From an uncultured bacterium (GTDB taxonomy: Bacteria > Patescibacteriota > Minisyncoccia > Phycocordibacterales > GWA1-40-21): a stretch of DNA of 53,921 bases. Under the pieces are notes generated by a model. It was not told the DNA's origin and searched no databases. It saw nothing but the letters and a program-made list of their open reading frames with translations. The DNA lies in contig CAIJNK010000016.1 in assembly GCA_903822075.1 (NCBI GenBank), positions 1 to 53,921 on the forward strand, in the 5' to 3' direction. The position numbers were made by a program, and so were the translations under genes. Of the stretch, positions 5,454-51,240 are shown in pieces; position 1 is the stretch's first letter; each line of letters begins with the position of its first letter.

Positions 5454-5493
5454 AAGAAAACCGCCCCAGAACACGATGGTTCCTCAGGCGGTT
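5454..5493 (-). terminator. Intrinsic terminator of orphan gene 5509-5703
   Basis: Minus strand AACCGCCT...GGGGCGGTT then TTCTT. Confidence 0.65.
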
Positions 5494-5508
5494 CATTCCG
5501 AATAGATT

Positions 5509-5703
5509 CTAGGCCCACTTAATCCAATGCATGACGGCTAAGATTCCGGCGCCAACCACCAGCTTTATAGTGTCATGGATGAACCTGACGGACCAAACAT
5601 TTTCACTGACGTAGCCAATCCGCCGGTCGATATAGTTGCTCAACAATACGCACATAGCAACAAACGAAGCGAGAAAGACAAACTTCCGTATAAACTTCCA
5701 CAT
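5509..5703 (-). CDS. Small 2-TM orphan membrane protein (self-contained unit)
   Basis: SD AAGGAG 7 nt before ATG 5703; two hydrophobic stretches; own promoter and terminator. Confidence 0.65.
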   Translation of the reverse strand: MWKFIRKFVFLASFVAMCVLLSNYIDRRIGYVSENVWSVRFIHDTIKLVVGAGILAVMHWIKWA

Positions 5704-5761
5704 AAAAAGGCTCCTTGTTTTCGACACTAGCCACAACACCACGCTGTGATTTCTGTTTATG

Positions 5762-5791
5762 ATAATACTTCTAGAAATAGAGTTTTGTCAA
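5762..5791 (-). promoter_or_regulatory. Sigma70-type promoter TTGACA-18-TATTAT
   Basis: Direct match upstream of gene 5509-5703. Confidence 0.65.
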
Positions 5792-5815
5792 GGATTTTCT
5801 AAGCCGGGGAGCGGT

Positions 5816-8194
5816 TTACTTCCACTGCCAGTTCAAAATCTCCTCCGGATCATCCCCTACCCGCATAATATAGTCCTTATGGTCCTTGATTTTGTTCTGA
5901 TATTTCAGCACCAAGCGATTGGCTTTTTCGGCATCAACGACACCAGCCTTGGCTGTTTTTTCAATGGCTTCAATAAATAAATTATATCTATCTGTCTTGT
6001 TTCTGATATGAAGATCCAACGGAGTGGTGGTAGACCCGCTCTCCATATAACCATGAATGGATATCCGGCCAAGCTCATTAACAAACCGAAACAATGTCTG
6101 CTCCAAAGTATCAGGGTAGCCGTGGAAATTAAAAATGACCGGCTTCTCCTTGGTAAAATACCTTTCAAAATCTATCTCTGATATTTTATTCTCATGACCG
6201 ACAGTGTTCGGAGAAAGCTCCAGAACATTTACAAAACGAGCTTTCACTTCCGATGCTTCTTTTTTCAACAGATCAATAGCGGCTAGGGCTTCCTTAACCA
6301 AATACTGTCCGCAAGCACCAAAAACTACGTCCGGATTATCGTGGCTGGCAAAATTCCAAATGGACAAGCCATCTTCCACTTCACGCTTGGCCTCTTCGGG
6401 TGTCAGCCAGATTGGCTCCAAAGTTTTCTCTACCACAATCACATTGATTTCATTTTTGGAAGCTAGGCATTTTTCCGCAATCAAAACAGATTCATTGGCA
6501 TCCGCCGGAAAATAAATATTGATGAACTCATGACTCTTATTCAAAAGCTCGTCCATAAAGCTAGGGTTTTGGTGTGAAAAACCGTTATGCTCCTGGCGCC
6601 AGCCAGTTGAAGAAAGGATGTAATTAAAGGACGGCACATCCCCGCGCCAATCGGTCTTTCGAGCAATCTTCAAAAACTTGCTGTACTGATCCGCCATACT
6701 GGAAACAATTGGAATAAAGGCCTCATATGAAGCAAAAAAGGAAAAACGACCGGTCAGAGTATAACCTTGAGCCAAGCCCTGGAGTGATTGTTCAGACAGC
6801 ATTTCTATAATCCGTCCATCACGAGACATATCCTTGTCCCATTCTTCTATTTTACCCACAAATGCCCGCGTGGTTTCTTTGAACATATCTTGCAAACGAT
6901 TTGAATATGTTTCATCGGGCGAAAACAGACGGAAGTTTCTCTGGTCTCGGTTTAACTTAACCACTTCAGCTAAATATTCACCGATTCTTTTCATGGCTCC
7001 CGTTGGTACCGTTCCCGCTTCAGCTATCTTTATGCCAAAAGTATTAATATCCGGCAGAACTAAATCTCTGCTATGATCCCCTTTCTTGATGCCAAATGCG
7101 GTTTGATTATCACCCATGCGCAAACCTACTTTCGGCACATTAGCCATGATATCTTGAGAAAAACCAACCTGTGAATCAAATAATTCTTCAAACTCATAGG
7201 AATGCAGCCATTTTTCTACCATCCTGAGCTGAGTCTTGTCTGTCTTGGTTTCCTTACCTACCACTTGGTGGGACAAACAGTTACCCTCTATCTTATCCCC
7301 ACTGCCTTCGATTTTTGGACCAGGCAAATACTTTGGACCAGTCCAACCCTTTGGAGTTTTTAAGATAATCATCGGGAATTTAAAATAATCGTCCAGTTTT
7401 CTCTGTGGATTTTCTCTGGCTTCTTTTTGGATTTTTCGAATTTGAGTGTAAGCCAAATCCAACGCTTTGATCATTTTTTCATAGACTTTGTCCGTATGAC
7501 CCTCCACGATTATCGGTTCATAACCATAACCCTTAAACAGCGATTTCAAATCAGCATTTTTCATGCGCCCAAAAATTGTCGGTCCGGAAATTTTATAGCC
7601 GTTCAAATGCAAAATCGGTAAAACCGTACCGTTTTTTGCTGGGTCCACAAACTTTGACAAATGCCAAGCTGTGGCGGAAGCGCCAGTTTCGTTTTCACCA
7701 TCACCCACAAGACAAGTTACAATTAAGTCTGGATTATCGAGTACCGCACCGTAAGAAGTGGACAAGGAGTAACCCAGTTCCCCGCCCTCCAAAATGACAC
7801 CAGGGGTCATCGGGCTGCTGTGTGAAGGAAAGCCGTAGGGCCAGCTAAAATTTTTGGTAATATAGGCGATGCCCTCAGCGGTCAATTTAGCCTCAGTATA
7901 ATACTTACCAAGTGTTCCTTCCAGAAAGACATTTGATTGAATGGCGGGGAAACCGTGTCCAGGGCCAAGCACAAACATCATTTTAGCGTCAGTCTTAATA
8001 ATTAAATTATTCAAACAAGCGTAAACAAAATTAATACCCGGGCAAGTGCCCCAGTGACCCAAGAGTCTGGACTTGATGTGATCGAAAGTGAGTTTGTCTT
8101 TTAGTAAAAAGTTATCTTGTAAATAGATTTGACCGACTGATAAATAGTTCGTGGCACGCACAAACTTTTTAATTTTTTCTATTTCTTGGTTCAT
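5816..8194 (-). CDS. xfp: Xylulose-5-P/fructose-6-P phosphoketolase
   Basis: RLLGHWGTCPG, EGGELGYSL, TPP motif VGDGENETG, LHLNGYKI, RQEHNGFSHQNP. Confidence 0.95.
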   Translation of the reverse strand: MNQEIEKIKKFVRATNYLSVGQIYLQDNFLLKDKLTFDHIKSRLLGHWGTCPGINFVYACLNNLIIKTDAKMMFVLGPGHGFPAIQSNVFLEGTLGKYYTEAKLTAEGIAYITKNFSWPYGFPSHSSPMTPGVILEGGELGYSLSTSYGAVLDNPDLIVTCLVGDGENETGASATAWHLSKFVDPAKNGTVLPILHLNGYKISGPTIFGRMKNADLKSLFKGYGYEPIIVEGHTDKVYEKMIKALDLAYTQIRKIQKEARENPQRKLDDYFKFPMIILKTPKGWTGPKYLPGPKIEGSGDKIEGNCLSHQVVGKETKTDKTQLRMVEKWLHSYEFEELFDSQVGFSQDIMANVPKVGLRMGDNQTAFGIKKGDHSRDLVLPDINTFGIKIAEAGTVPTGAMKRIGEYLAEVVKLNRDQRNFRLFSPDETYSNRLQDMFKETTRAFVGKIEEWDKDMSRDGRIIEMLSEQSLQGLAQGYTLTGRFSFFASYEAFIPIVSSMADQYSKFLKIARKTDWRGDVPSFNYILSSTGWRQEHNGFSHQNPSFMDELLNKSHEFINIYFPADANESVLIAEKCLASKNEINVIVVEKTLEPIWLTPEEAKREVEDGLSIWNFASHDNPDVVFGACGQYLVKEALAAIDLLKKEASEVKARFVNVLELSPNTVGHENKISEIDFERYFTKEKPVIFNFHGYPDTLEQTLFRFVNELGRISIHGYMESGSTTTPLDLHIRNKTDRYNLFIEAIEKTAKAGVVDAEKANRLVLKYQNKIKDHKDYIMRVGDDPEEILNWQWK

Positions 8195-8212
8195 GGCGGA
8201 TATTATATCATA

Positions 8213-50446: not shown

Positions 50447-50457
50447 ATCCTTATTTA

Positions 50458-50547
50458 GGAAAAAGGAAATATTTGATTTTAAAATGTCTGGTTGAGCCGT
50501 TCTATGGGCGACCCGAGGACTTTTAAAATTAAAAATTTTCTTTTTCC
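50458..50547. other. About 90-nt stem-loop immediately upstream of eno
   Basis: GGAAAAAGGAAATATTTGATTTTAAAATGTC pairs with GACTTTTAAAATTAAAAATTTTCTTTTTCC; GC-rich apex. Confidence 0.75.
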
Positions 50548-50635
50548 GTATTGTTGAATTAATTATTTATAAAAAGTAAGACGCTATTCTAGCATAAAAA
50601 TTAGGAAAAAATAAACAAATGACAATTCAAAAGAA

Positions 50636-50678
50636 AACAGCGTTTCTTGTCAATCTTTTTCTGACAAGAAACGCTGTT
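50636..50678 (-). terminator. 17-bp perfect inverted repeat/terminator after orphan gene
   Basis: AACAGCGTTTCTTGTCA-9 nt-TGACAAGAAACGCTGTT; TTCTTTT follows on minus strand. Confidence 0.75.
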
Positions 50679-50684
50679 ATTTGT

Positions 50685-51137
50685 TCAAGCCAACAAACGT
50701 CTGGCAATTTCGTCTGCCACCCGGTAGTGCTCGTTGTTCAGGAAGTGCCTCCTGGTAAGTAACACATCGGCATTGGTAGGCTTTGACCCACTAATAGTGA
50801 GGTCAACAGTAACCGTAACGCCATTACACACAAAGATGCAGTCATAACCTCGGCAATCAAGGCAGGTACCAACGCAATTCAGAACACGCAAATCATGTTT
50901 CGCTTTGCCGAGTCTCCCCGCCACATGATTAAAGACGGCTTTAATCAGTTTGGTTTTAGGATTCTTAGCATCCCACCCGCCAAGCCTAGACTGGAGCCTC
51001 GACACCCAGCGCACTCCGTCCTCAAACGGTACCTTCCTCCAATTACGACGGTACTTGTGTGGTACTTCTGCAAACGACAAACCCATGGTCTCAACCTCAA
51101 ACGCATCGCCAGTTACAGCTCTAACTATCACGATCAC
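50685..51137 (-). CDS. Orphan protein with a degenerate PD-(D/E)XK-like motif (start codon uncertain)
   Basis: LDCRGYDCIF...VTVDLT...K...ADV; promoter TTGAAT-17-TATAAT at 51179-51207. Confidence 0.55.
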   Translation of the reverse strand: MIVIVRAVTGDAFEVETMGLSFAEVPHKYRRNWRKVPFEDGVRWVSRLQSRLGGWDAKNPKTKLIKAVFNHVAGRLGKAKHDLRVLNCVGTCLDCRGYDCIFVCNGVTVTVDLTISGSKPTNADVLLTRRHFLNNEHYRVADEIARRLLA

Positions 51138-51240
51138 CCCATCTGTTGAATGTTTAGAGAACGAAATTATCTGCCTATATTATATTCTCATCGAAACAGA
51201 CATTCAAAGAAGTTATCCACTTTCTCAAATTTAGAAAACT

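Follow-up and report, generated by a model that had tools for sequence, protein, structure and literature searches.

The window analysed here, a stretch of 53,921 nucleotides (nt), is the entire contig C16 in the assembly of an uncultured Patescibacteriota bacterium (genome G000; 819,066 bases in 22 contigs, 42.7% G+C). As identified by Pfam, its backbone consists of housekeeping genes: xfp, ackA, typA, truB, hisS, uppP, an AddA-like helicase gene, glycogen genes, tsf, rpsB, prfA, rpmE, fba, rpe, rpiB, gatB, obg, pgm and eno. A Pfam family was matched at E ≤ 1e-5 by 35 of the 44 backbone proteins. Twelve small genes (units 1–12) are dispersed among these core genes, each predicted to be a one-gene transcription unit with a sigma-70-type promoter, a leader of 30–175 nt, a Shine-Dalgarno (SD)-like site, an open reading frame (ORF) and an intrinsic terminator. 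An earlier note on this DNA had picked out the twelve for this common layout, and direct sequence reading of both ends of every unit confirmed this observation and showed all of them to be real.

A GGAG or GAGG core lies 4–16 nt ahead of the start codon in 11 of the 12 units, and the SD-like site is weak only at 50685, as had been remarked, where unit 12 has just GGGGTG. For five units the true start (5703, 15159, 21562, 35786 and 48795) is internal to the longest ORF. On visual inspection, a TTG-type -35 element, a spacer of 16–18 nt and a TAnnnT -10 element can be read 30–175 nt upstream in 11 of the 12, while a consensus scanner places a promoter-like site correctly for seven (5791, 10343, 11451, 21644, 35853, 49004 and 51207). 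The scanner totals exceed those of shuffled sequences only to a modest degree (41 compared with 31.2, standard deviation 5.7; 44 compared with 31.4, standard deviation 5.0), so the case for the unit promoters comes mostly from their position and from conservation in relatives. A foldable hairpin is found 3′ of the ORF in all twelve units. Under a rule that combines a hairpin with a T-tract, a terminator was assigned to 10 of the 11 candidate units that were called as genes, compared with 8 of the 44 other window genes; the stricter rule of the scanner finds hairpins after five of the 12, and the one at 14521 is an upstream hairpin, not the terminator. Hairpins of the form AAC...GTTTT(T)CT, to which the earlier note had drawn attention, are real for about five units, but represent merely the A-tract and U-tract of ordinary terminators. 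Genome-wide, this form ends 18 of 256 detected terminators (6 of 42 in the SD class defined below and 12 of 214 in other genes), and by this count the GTTTT(T)CT tail is not specific to the SD class.

The twelve ORFs are GC-richer than the genome, as had been suspected of several (0.45–0.51 compared with 0.427), and have few family matches. Only one of the twelve scores above a curated Pfam cut-off (12069, Nfu_N), and unit 4 is the sole unit above a curated NCBIfam cut-off (TIGR02532, score 16.6, cut-off 16.3). Nothing was matched in PADLOC at E ≤ 0.001. Two of the 12 matched PHROGs, unit 4 through its pilin N-terminus (best E 6.6e-10) and unit 2 with two weak matches (E ~0.005). No sequence similarity was detected among the twelve proteins, and no repeat is common to the units or to their ends. 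No junction motif was found at the ends of the units, nor was any terminal repeat or adjacent recombinase; the sole recombinase of the window is located at 1401–2891, distant from the units, and no intI family occurs among the 44 backbone proteins. With unrelated proteins and no shared mobility signal, the proposal that the units constitute a single undescribed system does not hold. The backbone lacks the unit layout, as had been stated: 15 of its 44 genes in the window have a TATAAT-like box 6–9 nt before the ATG, and none has an SD match of at least 6 nt.

In the following, each unit is given with its promoter (-35 hexamer, spacer length, -10 hexamer), SD-like site, ORF and terminator. Unit 1 (5454..5791, minus strand) splits the xfp/ackA pair, a placement that was upheld, and comprises TTGACA-18-TATTAT (5762–5791), a leader of about 50 nt, AAGGAG, a membrane-like ORF of 64 amino acids (aa; 5509–5703, minus strand) that the home-made gene caller missed, and a terminator at 5454–5494. 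Unit 2 (9560..10316, plus strand) has a by-eye promoter TTGACT-17-TAATTT, AAGGAGGAG, a 212-aa ORF with a GC of 0.51 (9628–10266, plus strand) and a terminator at 10279–10316. Unit 3 (10343..10836, plus strand) has TTGACT-17-TAGTAT, GAAGGAG, a 125-aa ORF (10408–10785) and a terminator at about 10808–10836, and is followed by unit 4 (10841..11451, minus strand) with TTGACA-16-TACATT, GAGG, a prepilin-type ORF of 150 aa (10910–11362, minus strand) and the terminator AACCGTTTCG...CGAAACGGTTTTTCT. Units 2, 3 and 4 together with a histidine kinase gene form a 3.3-kb island at 8213–11365. Unit 5 (12052..12555, minus strand) has a weak by-eye promoter, AAAGGAGG, an Nfu_N-like ORF of 141 aa (12069–12494, minus strand) and a terminator (12060–12080) that overlaps the stop codon. 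For unit 6 (14427..15250, minus strand; GAGGAG, a 212-aa ORF at 14521–15159, terminator 14427–14460) no convincing promoter was readable upstream.

Unit 7 (15748..16322, minus strand) has a by-eye promoter TTGCAA-16-TAGTCT, AAGGAGGT, a membrane-like ORF of 146 aa (15811–16251, minus strand) and a terminator at 15758–15792. Unit 8 (21214..21644, minus strand) comprises TTGTCA-16-GATAGT, AAGGAG, a 103-aa ORF (21251–21562) and a hairpin without a clean T-tract. Unit 9 (35342..35853, minus strand), which lies between prfA and rpsB as had been reported, has TTGACT-16-TACTAT, GGAG, a 129-aa ORF (35397–35786) and a terminator ending in TTTTCTT. Unit 10 (43786..44224, minus strand) has a by-eye promoter TTGCAT-16-TATTTT, AAAGGAG, a 105-aa ORF (43836–44153) and a terminator ending in TTTTTCTTT. 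Unit 11 (48105..49004, minus strand) has TTGACT-17-TATAAT, a leader of about 175 nt with a conserved stem-loop, AAGGAG, a 208-aa ORF (48169–48795, minus strand) and the terminator AACGGCTCG...CGAGCTGTTTTCT. Unit 12 (50626..51207, minus strand) comprises TTGAAT-17-TATAAT, its weak G-rich site, a 150-aa ORF (50685–51137, minus strand) and a terminator at 50636–50678. The core genes downstream of units 10, 12 and 7 (gatB, eno and an RRM gene) have in common an extended -10 element, TTTATGCTA(G/T)(A/T)AT, at 43765–43793, 50586–50614 and 15730–15745, and the same word precedes the RRM gene in the congener G009; it is likely a native promoter consensus.

The whole genome contains two types of gene start. 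A simple home-made dicodon caller yielded 853 genes covering 88% of the genome, of which 852 could be assigned a start. A leaderless-type start was defined by a TATAAT-like box (at least 5 of 6 matches) 5–9 nt ahead of the start codon; such a box precedes 202 of 852 starts, compared with 31 of 695 in decoy sets, with a spacing peak at 6–7 nt. Operon-internal genes (n = 170) are preceded at positions -10 to -2 by A-rich, G-poor sequence (A 44–68%, G 5–12%), in which the words AATAA and ATTAA are enriched. The same pipeline applied to G009 classified 211 of 779 genes as leaderless-type. The SD class, defined by a match of at least 6 nt to AAAGGAGGTGAT at the proper distance from the start, comprises 63 of the 852 genes; matches of 6, 7 and 8 nt were observed in 3.5%, 2.5% and 1.4% of genes, compared with 2.05%, 1.29% and 0.11% of decoys. 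Since the choice of start codon could bias such a count, the analysis was redone blind to the SD, with the first start codon of each ORF and with genes split by composition alone. Genes with a GC of at least 0.46 (n = 158) showed a GGAG/GAGG peak at -14 to -9 (0.15 and 0.32 per 3-nt bin, elsewhere about 0.02), and genes with a GC below 0.44 (n = 276) showed none. A crude whole-genome scan for SD-plus-ORF combinations (214 real, 192 control) was swamped by in-gene positions and was not used. A control with reversed motifs was also discarded as flawed, since three of the motifs, once reversed, are SD motifs in their own right.

Genes of the SD class are short (median 153 aa) and GC-rich (0.488 compared with 0.42 in others; 0.53 at third codon positions, GC3), with atypical codon use, long spacers on either side and low coding scores. 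Terminators follow 42 of the 63, compared with 18% of leaderless-type genes and 29% of the rest. Their conservation was assessed by tblastn against a single same-genus genome, G009, which was fetched nearly whole; like all genomes compared here, it is a metagenome-assembled genome. A homologue was found for 6 of 63 SD genes, 143 of 202 leaderless-type genes and 314 of 554 others. Among genes of matched size (80–260 aa), a homologue is present for 3 of 39 SD genes compared with 57% of the others (Fisher p 7e-10), and in a logistic model that includes length and GC the SD coefficient for homologue presence is -2.16. The earlier note had envisaged a distinct class of genes, and this is borne out across the genome: the SD and the terminator track orphan status strongly, the reverse of an uncorrelated distribution.

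Comparison of matching loci from up to 15 relatives (16 for the tblastn search of unit 2) revealed the empty sites that had been predicted. Core genes are conserved in these syntenic loci (e.g., xfp at 61–88% and eno at 67–91%), while no match in the loci of the relatives was found for nine of the 12 units, namely at the unit 1 slot and at 9628 (unit 2, tblastn), 10910, 15811, 21251, 35397, 43836, 48169 and 14521. Unit 3 (10408) has a single weak match (37%), in G018 only. The slots of unit 1, of units 2–4 (as one island) and of units 5–11 are empty (2–110 nt) in at least one congener. The xfp-ackA slot (unit 1) measures 2–44 nt in 10 of 14 relatives; the slot between xfp and 11493 (units 2–4), 34–108 nt in 7 of 7; the RRM-truB slot (unit 7), 82–346 nt in 7 of 7, compared with 643 nt here; the uppP-addA slot (unit 8), 8–78 nt in 4 of 7; the gatB-obg slot (unit 10), 15–48 nt in 4 of 6; and the pgm-eno slot (unit 11), -2 to 69 nt in 7 of 7. 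The rpsB-prfA slot (unit 9) measures 55–61 nt in two of three relatives (G008 and G013), and in G009 it holds 873 nt of other DNA. Other relatives carry different ORFs in the same slots, mostly GC-rich (0.50–0.61) and often behind GGAGG-like sites; in slots C, D, F, G, H and J these ORFs have no BLAST similarity to window genes, save for two weak or partial cases. Where the slots are empty, ackA and pgm follow xfp and eno, respectively, as operon partners (at 2–44 nt in 10 of 14 and at -2 to 69 nt in 7 of 7), and here each has its own TATAAT box 7–8 nt before the ATG (5423–5445 and 48068–48103). New leaderless promoters on ackA and pgm seem to go with unit insertion.

Some units do not behave as insertions. 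A homologue of unit 5 (37–41% identity) occupies the same slot in G008, with GGGAGG ahead of its start, and three of the 300 other genomes examined from the order contain the family. Unit 6 (14521) matches itself alone among 5.8 billion clustered proteins and shows weak similarity (30%, E 6e-7) to an ORF in the same slot in G010. Orthologues of unit 12 adjoin eno in five congeners with 36–43% identity, while eno itself is conserved at 87–91% in four of them and at 67% in G001. Two or three units (50685, 12069 and perhaps 14521) are thus fast-evolving residents at fixed sites. The idea of portable, exchanged units therefore stands in part: it is upheld by the empty sites and by one family that is portable as a whole unit, but not for the two or three residents, and no mobility signal accompanies it. 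Among the matches listed in DNA contigs of lake water, identical contigs in four runs from two studies cover stretches of units 2–7, and some bridge unit 7 and truB. Cassette-less joints were not found among the matches listed from the four runs; the joints listed there lie in conserved typA and are probably from other organisms. For positions 9400–19399, no RNA data set with matching sequence was listed.

Two of the units could be followed as families beyond the genus. For unit 11, a threshold of E ≤ 0.001 gave 17 homologues, of which 13 have 40–50% identity over at least 97% of the query. All named homologues belong to the candidate phyla radiation (CPR; Taylorbacteria), in line with assignment of the genome itself to the CPR; the ESM Atlas matches are CPR clusters, and all eight loci in species-representative genomes are from CPR. 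At these eight loci the gene has a GC of 0.51–0.60, compared with 0.37–0.49 in the flanks, and the neighbouring core genes vary by lineage. A promoter, a leader of 75–175 nt and a purine-rich GGA, GAGG or GGAG site before the ATG are present in nine of nine members. The leader (window 48796–48880, minus strand; L075–L082) contains a conserved AAACCTGTCTGCTT..TGG followed by a stem-loop, whose stem of 15 pairs includes six with compensatory changes among seven sequences; it has no Rfam match and is a candidate cis-regulatory RNA. The homologues at L075–L082 also carry repeated CCTTTG/CTTTGG words in the 3′ untranslated region, just past the stop codons; these words complement the AAAGG-type site that precedes the start, and the window copy is without them. 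A fold search with the unit 11 family returned no match.

Orthologues of unit 12 in the five congeners have a clear promoter and leader in three cases, and a G-rich site and terminator in all five. Of 401 genomes sampled from the order, 37 contain the family. Its model has a pLDDT (predicted local distance difference test score) of 91.8, but the best Foldseek match has an E of 0.22 and the best VIA Z is 5.1, where the noise of the tool is 7–8. The top rows of these weak matches are mostly nucleases of the PD-(D/E)xK type, and the alignment of the family (A2) contains invariant E14, E16, D94, D99 and D112; a link to PD-(D/E)xK nucleases may be entertained as a lead only. When alignments of the two families were scanned against the viral contigs of IMG/VR, no relatives of either were found, and neither family looks imported from ordinary bacteria. 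The restriction to CPR loci and the conservation of whole units argue for a flexible pool internal to CPR, in which a gene keeps its whole expression unit as it travels or persists.

The SD-like sites stand in a lineage whose 16S rRNA appears to have lost the complementary sequence. The 16S 3′ tail is without CCUCC in 10 of 10 readable relatives (two of the genus, two of the family and six of the order), which have GGA(U/A)...UUC(A)AAU where the canonical GGAUCACCUCCUUA would be; the CCUCC-free tail expected for the lineage ends in ...GGAUAUUUUCAAAU. Among 401 sampled genomes of the order, the A/U-rich tail was found in 216, including the unpublished genome G267, and the canonical tail in two. 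G176 matches both tail patterns on different strands and may contain either a contaminant contig or two rRNA types. In G012 (L064) and G018 (L063), the helix-45 anchor lies about 850–1000 nt past the end of the Rfam 16S match, which suggests large insertions within their 16S genes. A subgroup of Parcubacteria has been described as having lost the 16S anti-SD, and it was suggested that SD helices do not form there (Tsurumaki et al., 2022, RNA 28:1041, PMC9297842). The relatives of our genome resemble that subgroup in lacking a CCUCC tail, and the core genes of our genome in lacking an SD, but the accessible part of that paper mentions no minority class of genes with a canonical SD such as is present here.

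Against a canonical 16S tail, the upstream regions of the SD class show strong pairing (mean -10.35 kcal/mol, compared with -5.92 for shuffled sequences). The possibility that GGAGG forms wobble pairs with the U-rich native tail was rejected (-3.28 compared with -3.19 kcal/mol for shuffled sequences). No replacement SD that would pair with the native tail was apparent ahead of core genes (GAAAA in 14 of 170, TGAAAA in 3 of 170), and an unsystematic look for a stand-alone CCUCC RNA in G000 met only coding or antisense-of-SD matches. A G-rich site is nevertheless kept in six of six congeneric unit 12 orthologues, whose leaders, unaligned, are unalike by eye. Elsewhere in the order, GGAG or GAGG occurs at -18 to -4 in 9 of 25 evaluable members of the family, compared with 3 of 25 in a control window. 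Some of these nine sites are 8–10 nt long, and five of the nine (G343, G279, G258, G331 and G221) come from assemblies in which the 16S itself carries the A/U-rich tail. At L097 (G343), AAAGGAGG is present even though the GC of the gene equals that of its flanks (0.34), and across the family the mean GC excess is +0.014 in members with an SD and +0.031 in members without a G-rich site. To judge from this distribution, the SD-like site is on balance likely to be maintained by selection.

Taken together, we estimate at roughly 60% the probability that the predicted one-gene units represent a flexible CPR gene pool occupying variable slots between core genes with leaderless or A-rich starts. The twelve units would be part of a genome-wide class, about 60 strong, of short, GC-richer accessory genes that fill variable slots, while core genes would be leaderless or preceded by A-rich, G-poor sequence. 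Some members may be very fast-evolving slot residents and others may be gained, lost and replaced as whole units. Because no dedicated recombinase or end motif is present, we infer that cells take up related DNA and that recombination within the flanking core genes, or close to them, moves the units. Insertion of a terminated unit into an operon would then be accompanied by a new leaderless promoter on the downstream gene, as at ackA and pgm. Tentatively, and with odds clearly below even, Paceibacteria may have two initiation channels, a leaderless or A-rich one for the core and, for a fast-turning accessory pool, a selected canonical SD that is not read by the 16S tail. The reader of the SD could be a protein, another CCUCC-bearing RNA or a subpopulation of ribosomes.

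Several points weigh against the flexible-pool reading. The assembly of G000 is itself without a 16S gene, and its missing anti-SD is therefore deduced from relatives. At a threshold of at least 5 nt the excess of SD matches is small (98 of 852 compared with 53 of 695 decoys), and both the choice of starts and the terminator rule (hairpin plus T-tract) are home-made. Genome-wide conservation was scored against one congener by tblastn, which can miss short, fast-evolving proteins. In that congener, G009, just 14 of 779 genes have an SD, not above the decoy rate; these 14 are GC-rich (0.514) and poorly conserved (29%), and the class may be much smaller there, or the AT-trained caller may miss GC-rich genes. 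Outside the genus, a G-rich site is missing from 10 of 25 members of the unit 12 family, four of which look leaderless, so the SD is not obligatory and can be lost. The movement of units by recombination is likewise a matter of inference.

The main rival account, which we consider rather unlikely, is that the units are recent imports from donors with ordinary ribosomes, with signals that have yet to decay, an SD that is a functionless relic and genes that are mostly transient passengers. It would explain the canonical SD and the composition: the SD regions pair with the canonical tail and not with the native one, codons are atypical with a high GC3, 57 of 63 SD genes have no homologue in the congener and 14521 has no homologue at all. 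It accommodates the relatives and the persistence of the sites poorly. As the order is nearly devoid of anti-SD (216 to 2), the donors would have to lie outside it, yet all traceable relatives of the unit 11 and unit 12 families are CPR and none is in IMG/VR; moreover, SD-like sites persist at a fixed slot in six of six congeners and at L097 in a gene no richer in GC than its flanks, and in the unit 12 family the presence of an SD does not follow GC excess.

Still less probable is a native regulon in which effectors of the cell surface or of host contact are co-regulated, with SD-dependent translation as the common switch, an idea raised in the earlier note that finds little support here. Units 1, 4 and 7 are membrane-like or pilin-like, and the leaders are long, with one conserved and structured; but the proteins are mutually unrelated with a single pilin-like member, hydrophobic N-terminal segments occur in the SD class (27%) at no higher rate than in other classes (22–30%), promoters and leaders, compared by eye and unaligned, share generic consensus elements only and no common repeat, and most members are missing from congeners. 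That the units are not genes at all, but structured RNAs, chimeras of the assembly or ORFs that arose by chance in GC-rich spacers, is very improbable, even though GC-rich DNA in an AT-rich genome yields long ORFs on either strand (as seen in slot D) and coding scores are low. The SD peak is position-specific, the protein families are conserved with 21–29 invariant columns, and fold models are confident or fair (pLDDT 91.8 and 79.4). An Rfam search of the window found two tRNAs and nothing else, and the independent contigs from two studies cover parts of units 2–7 and the unit 7/truB junction.

The units resemble several known arrangements without coinciding with any of them. Integron cassettes are promoterless, end in attC sites and are arrayed beside intI; they are likewise portable single-gene units, but the units here have promoters, are dispersed and have neither a common end motif nor an integrase nearby. 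Phage morons are prophage-borne single genes, each with a promoter and terminator of its own. The units are similarly self-contained and placed between other genes, but have no prophage context, a PHROGs match at E ≤ 1e-4 for unit 4 only, and no viral relatives. Flexible genomic islets occupy hot spots between core genes and carry compositionally atypical, acquired genes. As in such islets, the slots are variably filled in congeners, composition is atypical and flanks are conserved; the units differ in being single genes with full expression signals, GC-richer rather than AT-richer, without integrase or att sites. High GC is kept in eight of eight CPR loci of the unit 11 family but in just 11 of 25 members of the unit 12 family. 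In the ‘group C’ genomes of GeneMarkS-2 (e.g., Actinobacteria and Deinococcus), which are rich in leaderless genes, two gene-start models apply; the 16S tail retains an anti-SD and the genes with a ribosome binding site (RBS) are ordinary core genes. The present genome is alike in having a -10 box 6–9 nt before many starts and a second gene set with an RBS, but here the RBS is not complementary to the 16S tail of relatives, and the SD set consists of short, GC-rich accessory genes. No SD-led accessory class was found in the accessible literature, supplements aside, on leaderless genes or SD sequences in Patescibacteria, CPR or Parcubacteria.

Two further features of the window lie apart from the units. 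The AT-rich contig end (1–2951, GC 0.27–0.39) looks like an integrated mobile element: it contains an N6/N4 DNA methylase gene (568–1395) and the large serine recombinase gene (1401–2891), which overlaps a tRNA-Asn gene (2879–2951, minus strand). This putative element is AT-richer than the genome, opposite to the twelve units. The gene at 11493–12053 contains seven copies of a 21-nt (seven-residue) repeat, GGTGATGTC..., at 11760–12041, and its protein has only Pfam matches of coiled-coil type, all under the cut-offs.

On the reading of the units as a flexible pool, gene-start signals would separate the core from the flexible genome in CPR, and in this genome the separation can be counted, which would be useful for gene calling and pan-genome work on CPR lineages. 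For the translation field it raises the question of why a well-placed canonical SD persists, apparently under selection, where the 16S anti-SD has been lost. Either the flux of genes from outside is far above what homology data indicate, or a mode of SD recognition exists that is independent of the 16S tail. If there are indeed two initiation channels, they would provide the cell with a separate handle on the expression of its accessory genes.

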